From Naegleria gruberi (taxonomy: Eukaryota), in the NCBI GenBank assembly GCA_000004985.1, contig GG738861.1: a stretch of 64,000 nucleotides of DNA; one strand, written 5' to 3'. Below, in pieces: positions 26,692 to 56,018 of this stretch. The notes beneath the pieces were generated by a model. That model did not search any database and was not told the DNA's origin. It saw nothing but the letters and a program-made list of their open reading frames with translations. Positions within the stretch are counted from its first letter, which is position 1. Each line of letters starts with the position of its first letter. The translations under genes were made by a program, and so were the position numbers.

Positions 26692-29491
26692 TTGGAAATG
26701 TTACACGGAGTTTCGGCTAGAATAGTTTCGGTGAAACACGCAAAAAAAATGAAAAGAAACAGTTCACCCACATGGCTCACAGCAGCATGCTTGTTGATTT
26801 TCTCATTGTTTGGCAGCTTCTGTTTAGTTTCTGCCACAGCAGTGAACGAAGGAATCTTTAAAAGCGAAACTAATATTCAGTTTCTTTCAGAATATTTTCA
26901 TGTGGAAACTAAACTTGCAGCAACAGGTAGAAGAAATGGCATGTATAATTTATTTACACAAAATGAGAAGAGAAGAGATATGAATAGGTTTCTTCATGAA
27001 TCTAATCCATTTCTTTTGAATGAACCTTTACTTTCGTCTACTTTAAATCATCAACGAAATATTCAACAAGAAGACGAAACTCAATTTTTCAGTGTCTTGT
27101 TGAAAGTGAAAGATATCCAAAAGTTTAAAAAGGAAAACACTAACTTGAATATCCAACCAATGGCCAAAAATGTAATTTCCACAAGAATGGACATGGATTC
27201 AATTCAATCCTTATTAGGAAAAGATTACATTGAATGGATTGGACAAATTGACCCAATTTTCAAGTTTGATATTCAAGATTTCATGGAAAATAAGCAAGAA
27301 ACAGTTGAATTGTTAATTCAGTTTGCAAGTGGCATTTCTAATGAAATGAAACGAATGATGGAAATATTCGAAACTCAATTTGGCGTTTCACTTTTAAGAA
27401 TTGAAAAGCAAAATCTCATGTTATTGACAGTGCCTAGAAGATATGCCCTCGGAGTTTCGTATGAAATTTCCAAAGATTCTTCAGTAATTTGGATCGAACC
27501 AAAACAAGAAATTTCACTCACCAACAAATTTTCCAAAAGTATCATTGATGATGGAAGTGAGAGAATTCAAGAACGTGTGAATTTTGGTGGATTGACAGGT
27601 GAAGGTGAAACAGTAACAGTGGTCGATGGATCTTTTGATGTCACTTCATGTTTCTTTGCTGATCCAAATGTTCCTGTCACTCAATTTAAAACCTACAAGG
27701 AAGGAATGAAGTTGACTTCACAACAAGTCAATTCACACAGAAAAATCAAAGCTTACTATGCATTTGTAGATAATAGAACAAGAGATAGTGATCATGGTTC
27801 ACATGTGGCTGGAAGTGTTGCAGGAAATTCCATTTATAGTAATAGTATTGGTGATACGTTAGTTTCTGATTATAATGGAATAGCTCCAGATTCAAAAATG
27901 GTATTTATTCAACTTGGATGTACATCACCAGTATGTATTTCAGAAAATGGTGAGAAATTTACTTCAAGTCCTGGTTCACTTTTTCCACCTTCTGATCCAT
28001 ATAATTTCTTTTCCTTCTCCAAGGAGATTGCCAATAGTAGAGTGCAAACGAATAGTTGGGGAGGAGGTAGTTCCTATAATTATTATGCCTCCTCTACGGA
28101 TGAGTACATTTTTAATAATAAGGATATGGTTACCTTGTTTGCAGCTGGTAATTCTGGAAGAAGTGGTTTTAAAACTATTGGAGGTCAAGCGCACGCCAAG
28201 AATGTTATCACTGTTGGAGCTAGTCATAATTCCTTTGGAGCACGTACAGTTCAGTATGCCAACTTGACATCCTCAACAAATTCAGTTGTGAGAGAGTATA
28301 TTGTGGCAGTTTTACAATGTTCTCCATATTCTACCAAGTACATTAATCAATGTACATATTTCAATGATTTGAACAATATTGTGGATGCATGTGATGAGAG
28401 TGGATATTGTGCTAAAGGAACTATGTCCGTTTCGACTGGATCTTGTGGATGTGCCATTGGAGGAGTTGGACAATTGTATTGTGGAAGATGTGTCTATCCG
28501 AGTCTTGCTGTTAAGGATATTCAACCTGATTCAGTGACCTCTTTCAGTAGTAGAGGACCAACTATGGATGGAAGAATTAAGCCAGATATTATGGCTCCAG
28601 GTGATCAAATTATTAGTGTGAGATCTTATCCGACTCTGGATGATGTTGGAACTCAATGTTCTCAAAGAAAAAACCTAATTGACCATGTTACTGCTAAACG
28701 GGGAACAAGCATGGCAACACCAACTTTAGGTAAGTTTAATTCACCATTCATATTTACATTATTCTATGATTTGTAAAGCTGGCTTGACTGCGATCGTTAG
28801 ACAATATTTCAGAGATGGATACTATGTGGATGGTGTGAAGAATGCAAAGATTGCATTTAATCCATCAGCATCACTTGTAAAAGCTACAATGATTAATTCT
28901 GCTGTTGATTTGGCATCTCTTTCTGAGGATACTCAATTTTTGGAAAAGCTAGCACCAAGAAATTGGAATTCCACTCGTTATCAAGGATTTGGTAAAGTTC
29001 AAATTGATAATGTGTTCCAATTTGGTAAAAGTGAAAGAAAATTGTGGATTGGAAGAACTGAAAACATTCAAAACATTGCACAATTATCAAATGTTGAGAC
29101 TGAATTTGGTGATCCAGTTCTTTCAAGTGTCGAGGATGAACATGTTTATTACATTGCTCCTACTAATGCTAATTTGCCAATGAAGAATGTTAAAATTACA
29201 CTAGTCTGGTCAGATTACCCTTCAAATCCTCTTAGTCGTCTCAATATTGTCAATAATCTTGACTTGGAGGTGAATGTTTTTAGAGATGTGATTTTTGGAA
29301 ATTCTCAATTGTATGGTCTTTCACAAGATAACATGGCCAGGGATACTTTGAATAATGTTGAACAAGTTTGGCTCGATAGTACTGATCACGGAGTGGTAAT
29401 TAGAGTTTATGCAGAGTATTTGTTTGTTCCACAAAGTTATTCACTCGTAGTTTCTGGAGATAATGTTTCCATGCACTTACTGAAAGAGTAA
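26692..29491 (+). CDS. subtilisin-like serine protease (S8); 2 exons (~26749..28729, 28779..29491)
   Basis: Signal peptide MKRNSSPTWLTAACLLIFSLFGSFCLVSA. Catalytic motifs VTVVDGSFD (Asp), DHGSHVAGSVAG (His), FAAGNSG (Asn) and GTSMATPTLAG (Ser), the last reconstituted across a 49-nt GTAAGT...AAAG intron at 28730..28778. Confidence 0.85.
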
Positions 29492-43912: not shown

Positions 43913-44907
43913 ATTATCTGGAATGGCAACTTGGATTTTTTTAATAGAAAATAAACAATGATACTAAACTAAACTATTCAGTTTTATATTAAGATTTGGG
44001 ATTCAATTACAATAATTTCAAAAACAGAGGTACAGTTGATGAATTTTCAGGAAATATCATCCACTGACCAATAAAGTGTTGATTTGAAATCAATTAACAT
44101 GTTTCTCCAAGTTGCTGGAATCTGATGAGGCAATTGAATTGGTTGCAGATGTTCAGGGAAAGGGAGATGTCATGTTGGAGCCGTTGTTGAAGCAGGTGCT
44201 GTCATTTTAGCATTGTGTGTTGCTGTGTGGGATGAAAAAAAGAAAAAGCCAAATAGAACGTTTTAAATTCATAAGCCTCAGCAAAACCATTGCTAAATCT
44301 CACATGAGAATTAAACTTGTGTATTTTGAATCTAATTATTGAGTTGAAGTTTAAACTTTCGAACATTTACTTGTTTCAAATCAATTAAAAAACAGTTGAA
44401 AAGATAACAACCTGTCATTACGTTAAAAAAAATGAATCAAACAGAACTCTTGGTCTTGATTATTTTCAGTTTATTCTTCCCTCCACTTTGTAAGTTTTTC
44501 ATGAATAACCCGAAGTTTAGTTTCACCTAACTCCAATATAAATTCACTAGCTGTGGCAGTTGTAAGTAACAAAACATGACACCAAACATTTGACATTTCA
44601 CAACAATATTATTCGGATGATGATAATTATTGAATATCCAACATGAAAATAATTTAGAAAAAAAGAATGCACTTGCATTTGTACTTGAACATTCTCCTGA
44701 CAATTTTAGGTTGGATTCCAGGAGTTATTCATGCTTTTTTAGTATTGTTCGATGTTTTCAATTAAAACAACTTAAAGATAGATTATCAAACTATCTATTT
44801 GGAGGAACTATTAAATATTTGATAGTTCAACTATATTATTAATTCACAATTTCTTTGATTTCACACAGAATATCACAAAATAATATTCAATCTTGTTATG
44901 AAACAAT

Positions 44908-54933: not shown

Positions 54934-56018
54934 TTACAAGGCAGGTTTGCCTGCCCATACATCCTTTCCAAATCCGCATTCATTATGTCCTCTTAGAATC
55001 CAGAAATATCCATCCAATCCCCAAGCTATCACAATAATGAACACTCACATGATGATAAACTCCCGACTTGTATGAGAACAGATCACGATAGACAGCAATG
55101 GCTACTTGCACAGAACCATGAGTTTTGATTTCAGTCATAATCTCAACCATGTTTTCTAATTTCTTAGCAGCTGCTGCTTTGTAAAATTTGGAAGTTTGTC
55201 CTGGAACTGTGCATTTGGAAGGACAATGGCCAACTGTACCATTTCCAGATGAATATGGAACACAAGAATCAGTTGGAATACCTACAGAGACGAGGAATTG
55301 CCATGCAGCATGTAAAGTACCTCCTTAATATTTTTGATTTTTACAGTTATTGGAATTTTGTAAAGAATATTGTAAAATATTTTTCAAACGTACCATTACA
55401 AGCATTATTTTGAGCACTACATTCAAGCATGTATTCAGGTGATAGCATTACTTGAACGCTACCATTGGAATAAACACAAAATCTATCAGAGAGTACAGCA
55501 CTTGCCTGATATAATATTAATTTTCAATGAAATTCACACAAAACTTACAGAAACTATTTGAAATTATCAATTTCAGAGTGAATTAAACTTACATGCCCAA
55601 CAACTACCACATTGTTCTTGATTTCTGATTGGGGTAATGCAATGTGGCCATTCTTTTCTAGCATCAAATTGTTCTGGTAAATTTCTCACTTTGGTCAACT
55701 CTGCCCTGACATTAAATTTACTACGAGTTGGTTCAGTAAAATTATGAACACCCAAATACTACAAGATTACATCCCACTCTATTAGAAAATTAAATAAAAT
55801 TAAATACCAACCTTTCTAAAATCGGATAATTTCATATTATCAAAGTGTGGATAAGAAGTTGCTCTCCAACCAACTCCAACTTGTGAATTTACTTGTTCAA
55901 CAAGTGCTCTGGTTTGGATCGGTTTATTCCAGAAATCTTTCTCTTCGGCGAAAAGAAATGTGACAGCCAAGAGAAGCAAGCAGATAACAAGGAAACTATT
56001 GTAGACGAAACCGTTCAT
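54934..56018 (-). CDS. cathepsin B-like papain-family cysteine protease; at least 5 exons with 39-70-nt introns (approximately 56018..55812, 55758..55593, micro-exon 55553..55549, 55505..55394, 55323..~55055, then terminal segment to 54934)
   Basis: Signal peptide [21 protein letters not shown]. Propeptide and mature start YLGVHNF...[14 protein letters not shown]...QCGSCWA. The next exon [38 protein letters not shown] and C-terminal [22 protein letters not shown] match cathepsin B. The region that should hold the His box is not recoverable in one frame. Confidence 0.65.

Follow-up and report, generated by a model that had tools for sequence, protein, structure and literature searches.

Can a stretch of five nucleotides serve as a coding exon in a protease gene of Naegleria gruberi, and can the gene that carries it still give an active enzyme? 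The question is raised by the gene NAEGRDRAFT_66115, which runs on the minus strand from position 56018 to position 54934 of a 64,000-nucleotide stretch of contig GG738861.1 (assembly GCA_000004985.1), called the window in the following. A preliminary description of this DNA had suggested that a cathepsin B gene needs the micro-exon TTTCT at 55553–55549 to keep the conserved CGSCWAF active-site motif in frame. We suggest that TTTCT is probably a genuine coding micro-exon of NAEGRDRAFT_66115 lying between two spliceosomal introns, and that the gene is most likely a paralogue which was disabled recently, be it a pseudogene or a remnant without catalytic function.

The proposed five-nucleotide exon

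By joining the exons 56018–55812, 55758–55593, 55553–55549, 55505–55394, 55323–55045 and 55025–54934 we obtain the exact translation of the N. gruberi protein P0001 (EFC45858.1, XP_002678602.1, UniProt D2VB73; recorded under the name "predicted protein"), to which the spliced product is 100% identical. The parts of the gene are the following:

55812–56018, minus strand: exon 1, 207 nt, from the ATG at 56018; signal peptide and propeptide, ends ...DFRK
55759–55811, minus strand: intron 1, 53 nt, GTTGGT...TTGTAG, phase 0
55593–55758, minus strand: exon 2, 166 nt, with the catalytic Cys; ends ...CGSCWA and a T that opens the Phe codon
55554–55592, minus strand: intron 2, 39 nt, GTAAGTTT...CAAATAG, phase 1, upstream of the putative micro-exon
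55549–55553, minus strand: putative micro-exon TTTCT, 5 nt; completes the Phe codon (T/TT) and gives the Ser codon TCT of CGSCWAFSAS
55506–55548, minus strand: intron 3, 43 nt, GTAAGTTT...ATATCAG, phase 0, downstream of the putative micro-exon
55394–55505, minus strand: exon 4, 112 nt, ends ...ACNG
55324–55393, minus strand: intron 4, 70 nt, GTACGT...TATTAAG, phase 1
55046–55323, minus strand: exon 5, homologous part, GTLHAAW...YKSGVYHHV; last stretch in the original frame
55026–55045, minus strand: lesion site, ~33 codons including the His/Asn region collapsed, with a frameshift; the "intron" of the public model is 55044–55026
54934–55025, minus strand: C-terminal remnant in the shifted frame, 62% identical to a cathepsin B-like protein of N. 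fowleri

Exon 2 ends with ...TGTTGGGCAT at 55593 and the exon that follows the five nucleotides starts with GCAAGTGCTG (GCA AGT GCT) at 55505. Between them TTTCT stands in the context CAAATAG-TTTCT-GTAAGTTT, with canonical AG and GT signals on its two sides and with both flanking introns complete. With TTTCT the product reads CGSCWAFSAS...LSDRFC and the catalytic cysteine motif is intact, whereas without it, that is with one intron of 87 nt, translation meets a stop after six codons. The predicted mRNA junctions are GTAGTTGTTGGGCATTTTCTGCAAGTGCTGTACT for inclusion and GTAGTTGTTGGGCATGCAAGTGCTGTACT for skipping. The coordinates, intron lengths and splice-site letters which the preliminary description had given for the region 55394–55593 are all correct, base for base, and its statement that skipping the segment breaks the frame is borne out by the premature stop in the translation without TTTCT.

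That the five nucleotides are needed for an in-frame CGSCWAF, the central claim of that description, is upheld by the splice patterns open to the region, by shuffled sequences, by the donors, by the intron lengths and by the homologous proteins. We enumerated all stop-free combinations of one or two introns with GT/GC-AG borders and a length of at least 25 nt over the region 55758–55394. A single one of the 237 stop-free solutions yields CGSCWAF[SGA]..LSDRFC, and this is the TTTCT solution, which is also the sole solution with two GTAAGT donors. Among the 120 best homologues 119 have the motif CGSCWAF, and the length does not vary at this place. In addition, the 87-nt interval was shuffled 200,000 times with its composition preserved and scored for an AG-N5-GT exon restoring phenylalanine followed by serine, glycine or alanine. 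Such an exon arose in 0.13% of the shuffles (1.3e-3), and in 0.0015% (1.5e-5) when the donor had to be GTAAG.

The donors of both introns are rare in this DNA. On both strands of the window (128 kb of sequence) GTAAGTTT occurs seven times; two of these sites are the donors at the putative micro-exon, 44 nt apart, and four of the remaining five match introns inferred independently by joining long open reading frames (ORFs). The ten other introns inferred in the window measure 40–124 nt and have the donors GTAAGTT[TG], GTATGT or GTGAGT. With 39 and 43 nt, introns 2 and 3 are short but normal by the standards of this genome, and for N. fowleri a minimum intron of 30 bp was judged appropriate (PMC8296547). 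The TTTCT arrangement is far beyond chance.

How would such a short exon be spliced? We propose that two ordinary spliceosomal introns of 39 and 43 nt, with the consensus donor GTAAGTTT and YAG acceptors, bound TTTCT. Splicing by intron definition would most likely take out introns 2 and 3 in succession, because five nucleotides cannot hold a 3′-splice-site complex and a U1/U5-bound 5′ splice site together. The pieces GCA-T, TT-TCT and GCA would thereby be joined to encode the invariant CGSCWAFSAS helix that bears the catalytic cysteine. A plausible competitor would be the pairing of the donor of intron 2 with the acceptor of intron 3, which would skip TTTCT by removing the whole 87 nt and give a premature stop. 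YTRAY-like elements (TTGAT and TTAAT) are found 11–13 nt upstream of the AG in introns 2 and 3, which is weak evidence in AT-rich sequence; four other introns of the window have a clearer TCTAATA element.

Two further ideas concerning these introns were rejected. A tandem duplication as the source of introns 2 and 3 is not indicated, as their similarity beyond the donor consensus equals that of shuffles (z = 0.09). Likewise, an RNA structure that presents the micro-exon is not indicated, as local folding gives no significant signal (z = −1.34).

Public model and homologous loci

The GenBank/RefSeq model of NAEGRDRAFT_66115 already includes the five-nucleotide exon with the same splice pattern, since our exon chain translates exactly to P0001. 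We found no mention of the locus NAEGRDRAFT_66115 or of Naegleria micro-exons in the library of papers searched. After P0001 the closest matches are cathepsin B and cathepsin B-like proteins of N. fowleri, N. lovaniensis and Willaertia magna with 44–49% identity. The product has a Peptidase_C1 domain (PF00112, E = 4.3e-40), but the match covers only positions 1–158 of the 220 positions of the profile, and the cathepsin-B propeptide family PF08127 scores 25.2 bits, which is under the cut-off of 32.7 bits. NAEGRDRAFT_66115 is the single cathepsin-B-like gene of the window, in which the G+C content is 30–37% and the ORFs are closely packed.

For comparison the exon structures of eight homologous loci (L001–L008) were determined by exact spliced alignment: four from N. 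fowleri (FDP41_005005, FDP41_007875, FDP41_011344 and FDP41_010780), one from N. lovaniensis (C9374_010021) and three from W. magna. The position of intron 1 (DFRK/xLG, phase 0) is common to NAEGRDRAFT_66115, FDP41_007875 and C9374_010021 (L003 1696–1867; L004 1690–1782), and intron 1 is the only intron of NAEGRDRAFT_66115 with cross-species support.

Several points speak against the TTTCT micro-exon. In none of the eight Naegleria and Willaertia loci is CWA^F or FS^A interrupted by an intron. Introns 2 and 3 are therefore either private to this lineage of N. gruberi or lost everywhere else, and the micro-exon structure, being without cross-species support, could be young. Intron 2, with 39 nt, lies at the limit set by the shortest other intron of the window (40 nt) or slightly under it. 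In addition, the public model may be homology-driven (of the GeneWise type) rather than backed by expressed sequence tags (ESTs), because XP_002678602.1 contains an "intron" of 19 nt; if so, its match with our exon chain is no independent evidence. The protein cluster of NAEGRDRAFT_66115 has one member, the genome model, and the database holds no RNA-derived protein that is more than 49% identical. Finally, if NAEGRDRAFT_66115 is dead, TTTCT may no longer be spliced or even transcribed.

A paralogue of N. gruberi deserves mention in this context. P0120 (XP_002682681.1) is the sole protein with an aberrant CGSCWAF motif among the 120 homologues, and the "CK" which follows CGSCWA in this protein is what read-through of T/GTAAG would give; the stretch reads CGSCWA/CKNLFIQ/SSEVL. 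Judged from its protein sequence, P0120 may contain, at the phase-1 site where NAEGRDRAFT_66115 has intron 2, an intron or a micro-exon that was modelled wrongly. The N. fowleri orthologue of P0120 (76% identity) has no intron at that site.

The C-terminal lesion

The second question concerns the end of the gene. The preliminary description had noticed a frame change after ...SGVYHHV, and this frame change is indeed present. It had also stated that no His-box or NSW motif can be recovered, and we agree: coding sequence for GGHA or NSW is found nowhere in the window, and a tblastn search with the His-box/NSW segment gave no match elsewhere in these 64 kb. About 33 codons of the intact relatives (through ...YWIVANSWG) correspond to ∼16 nt here (55042–55027), between ...HHVS and AWGLDG.... 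The lesion is an out-of-frame deletion of ∼83 nt net after HHVS; the catalytic histidine is either shifted from its frame or gone, whereas the asparagine of NSW is deleted. We suggest that one or more deletions with a net frameshift would have taken both the His box (GGHA) and the asparagine of NSW.

Two explanations had been offered for this region, either further tiny exons or a pseudogene. Further tiny exons are excluded, as only ∼16 nt are available for them and the window holds no His-box or NSW sequence elsewhere, so that of the two proposals a pseudogene or non-catalytic relic is left standing. The public model bridges the same place by an "intron" at 55044–55026, which is 19 nt long (GTGTTCATTATTGTGATAG, GTGTTC...GATAG), is without donor consensus and falls short of half the size of every credible intron in the window. 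This "intron" of XP_002678602.1 is probably an annotation artefact that bridges the frameshift. Unspliced read-through in the original frame ends at a TAA at 54985–54983 and gives a product of 279 residues, and the conserved tail is still open in the other frame. Two longer introns which could repair the C-terminal frame were tried, one of 61 nt (GTGATC...GATAG) and one of 85 nt (GTGAGT...GGAAAG). Both were rejected, as they delete conserved sequence and recover neither the histidine nor the asparagine.

Status of the gene

Possible signs of relaxed constraint are not restricted to the C-terminus. The N-terminal 256 residues violate six of the 48 columns which are at least 90% conserved, compared with a family median of one, and NAEGRDRAFT_66115 is thereby tied for the maximum among 100 sequences. 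The substitutions at conserved columns include SASEVL to SASAVL and NGPVQ to HGSVQ. The first 256 codons, spread across four introns, are without a stop and without any splice-site lesion. In the alignment to human CTSB a gap of 15 residues is seen at the position of the occluding loop with its His-His pair, and the homologues of Naegleria and Willaertia have the same short loop as NAEGRDRAFT_66115.

N. gruberi has 35 cathepsins of family C01 and at least three species-specific expansions of cathepsin B clades (PMC8296547). Judging by its sequence, NAEGRDRAFT_66115 is probably a pseudogene or a dead enzyme that stems from an N. gruberi-specific expansion of cathepsin B, and a decaying extra copy is to be expected in such an expanded family. 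The data suggest either that the disabling lesion is recent or that a truncated, non-catalytic protein is still made. A recent lesion is suggested by the tail, which is open and 62% identical to the relatives, and by the clean first four exons. The domain and the catalytic cysteine are present, but the histidine, the asparagine and the occluding loop are not, and therefore the predicted product should be called a degenerate cathepsin-B-like paralogue and not a cathepsin B.

Alternative explanations

Could the five nucleotides owe their splice signals to a coincidence in a dead gene? The 87 nt from 55592 to 55506 would then be, or would once have been, a single intron, the phase mismatch would be one more lesion, and AG-TTTCT-GTAAGT would have come about by chance. 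Given the independent frameshift and the loss of both the histidine and the asparagine, one lesion more would hardly surprise; moreover, 87 nt is a normal intron length here and the homologues are without introns at the site. Nevertheless, we regard such a coincidence as unlikely, since an AG-N5-GT exon restoring phenylalanine and serine, glycine or alanine is seen in only 0.13% of the shuffles (0.0015% with the GTAAG donor), the second GTAAGTTT is one of seven in 128 kb on both strands, and apart from this place no stop is met in the first 256 codons, which span four introns. These 256 codons could also be kept open by a single intron with unusual borders, either a GC-AG intron at 55596–55506 (91 nt) or an intron reaching from a GTTTAA donor at 55588 to an acceptor at 55501, both of which are stop-free. 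However, such an intron bypasses two perfect GTAAGTTT donors in favor of donors (GCATGT, GTTTAA) that are unlike those of the other inferred introns of the window, and it deletes or replaces the invariant Ala-Phe after Cys-Trp, in conflict with the CGSCWAF of 119 out of 120 homologues. We find this explanation hardly credible.

An exon whose skipping leads to a premature stop might also serve regulation. According to this explanation TTTCT would be included alternatively, and skipping would direct the mRNA to decay and so tune the expression of the gene. Both acceptors are open to the first donor, and since the nearer one leaves an intron of 39 nt, at the lower end of the sizes seen in the window, skipping is kinetically plausible; a stop indeed follows six codons after the skipped junction. 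Against this stand the lack of any sign of conservation or regulation, the non-significant RNA fold (z = −1.34) and the fact that the gene appears to be non-functional anyway; such a "poison-skipping" exon is rather unlikely. One might further ask whether the C-terminus or the micro-exon region is only the product of errors in the draft assembly or sequence, with a normal protease as the real gene. A C-terminal remnant that is open and 62% identical to homologues would fit a lesion that is artificial just as well as one that is very recent. But not one base is missing there but ∼83 nt net, the micro-exon region has clean consensus signals, and the raised number of changed conserved columns outside these regions argues for a probably real relaxation of constraint, so that we consider an artefact very unlikely.

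Other very short exons in Naegleria

Very short exons are also annotated in the homologous N. fowleri gene FDP41_011344 (contig VFQX01000009.1, L006), where the 7-nt and the 15-nt exon, both within L006 1383–1705, encode the conserved WGKCIHPIR:

1493–1499 in FDP41_011344: annotated exon of 7 nt, GCAAGTG
1578–1592 in FDP41_011344: annotated exon of 15 nt
2289–2304 in FDP41_011344: annotated exon of 16 nt

By scanning the window for paired strong donors we located a second micro-exon, which has a length of 11 nt and lies in a gene of the Pmp3/UPF0057 family:

44432–44489, plus strand: exon of the Pmp3/UPF0057 gene
44551–44561, plus strand: 11-nt exon of the same gene, CTGTGGCAGTT
44658–44765, plus strand: exon of the same gene

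The two introns of the Pmp3 gene measure 61 and 96 nt and both have GTAAGT donors. The 58-residue product matches PF01679 with E = 3e-16 over positions 3–48 of the 49 positions of the profile, and without the 11-nt exon the gene meets a stop at once. No N. gruberi protein identical to this product is found in a collection of 5.8 billion proteins, and the Pmp3 gene is therefore apparently unannotated. The same scan gave another candidate with tandem donors (12764/12681, minus strand), which lies antisense to an apparent plus-strand coding sequence and was rejected as coincidental.

Given the 5-nt and the 11-nt exon in one window of 64 kb, the exons of 7, 15 and 16 nt in FDP41_011344 and the apparent mis-splicing of P0120, it is possible, and we propose it tentatively, that Naegleria, a discoban amoeba of a deep branch, has many coding exons of 5–16 nt with near-minimal introns and splicing purely through sequential intron definition which are often missed or mis-modelled, and that the introns around TTTCT are recent lineage-specific gains.

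Two side observations may be added. In the N. fowleri gene FDP41_010780 an annotated exon of 14 nt (L008 1552–1565) adds "CFV" within SPQDLV-SCNWY in comparison to its orthologue P0120; a genuine micro-exon and a mistake of the annotation are both conceivable. Furthermore, two unrelated introns of the window, at 28730–28744 on the plus strand and at 55578–55592 on the minus strand, share their first 15 nt (GTAAGTTTAATTCAC). The window has no third match to this sequence, also when two mismatches are allowed, and the remainder of both introns is dissimilar. The shared start could reflect an extended donor preference, a common descent of the introns or chance.

Significance and comparison with known systems

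For biology at large these results have little import; their value is mainly practical. The public model XP_002678602.1 is half right, as it contains a real-looking five-nucleotide exon, and half wrong, as its 19-nt "intron" masks a frameshift, and NAEGRDRAFT_66115 should be left out when the active cathepsin B enzymes of N. gruberi are tallied. The 5-nt exon, the 11-nt exon of the Pmp3 gene and the exons of 7–16 nt in N. fowleri suggest that the annotation of Naegleria would gain from a micro-exon-aware re-annotation. In addition, an exon of 5 nt between introns of 39 and 43 nt would offer a small natural system for testing how a spliceosome deals with two introns which cannot be occupied together.

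TTTCT is an instance of a known phenomenon, as micro-exons of 1–15 nt are established. In land plants coding micro-exons of this size have been described, including a 5-nt exon of rice Os08t0562700 that was validated by reverse transcription PCR (Yu et al. 2022, PMC8831610) and exons of a single nucleotide in APC11 and VPS55 (PMC8831610). It was argued that the flanking introns of plant micro-exons are impossible to splice simultaneously and are removed sequentially (PMC8831610). Like these exons TTTCT is internal, measures a few nucleotides, lies between canonical GT-AG introns with strong GTRAGT donors, and decides over the frame and over conserved residues; plant micro-exons, too, are often mis-annotated (PMC8831610). 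In contrast to the plant examples, TTTCT is flanked by near-minimal introns (39 and 43 nt), belongs to a heterolobosean, is not conserved in the homologues examined, lies in a gene whose catalytic residues are lost and is known from genome sequence. A closer parallel is FDP41_011344, which comes from the same genus and the same protease family and has very short exons between GT-AG introns that encode conserved residues. However, its short exons lie upstream of the active-site cysteine, their flanking introns measure 78–155 nt, and the gene is intact with His box and NSW.

When compared with the cathepsin B and cathepsin B-like proteases of Naegleria (N. fowleri cathepsin B-like X5D911, fowlerpain-2; PF00112 and PF08127), the identity is 44–49% over the first 256 residues. 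The Naegleria cathepsin B-like proteases and NAEGRDRAFT_66115 have in common the signal peptide, the cathepsin-B-type propeptide, the CGSCWAF helix, the short loop and the intron after DFRK, whereas in NAEGRDRAFT_66115 the histidine and asparagine are missing, six conserved columns are changed and two extra introns surround the 5-nt exon. NAEGRDRAFT_66115 also resembles the unprocessed (duplicated) pseudogenes and pseudo-enzymes of expanded gene families: it is a paralogue with introns that belongs to a lineage-specific expansion, it carries a frameshift and has lost catalytic residues, and its conservation is apparently relaxed. Unlike in unprocessed pseudogenes, the first 256 codons and the four introns of NAEGRDRAFT_66115 are intact and its C-terminal remnant is still recognizable.

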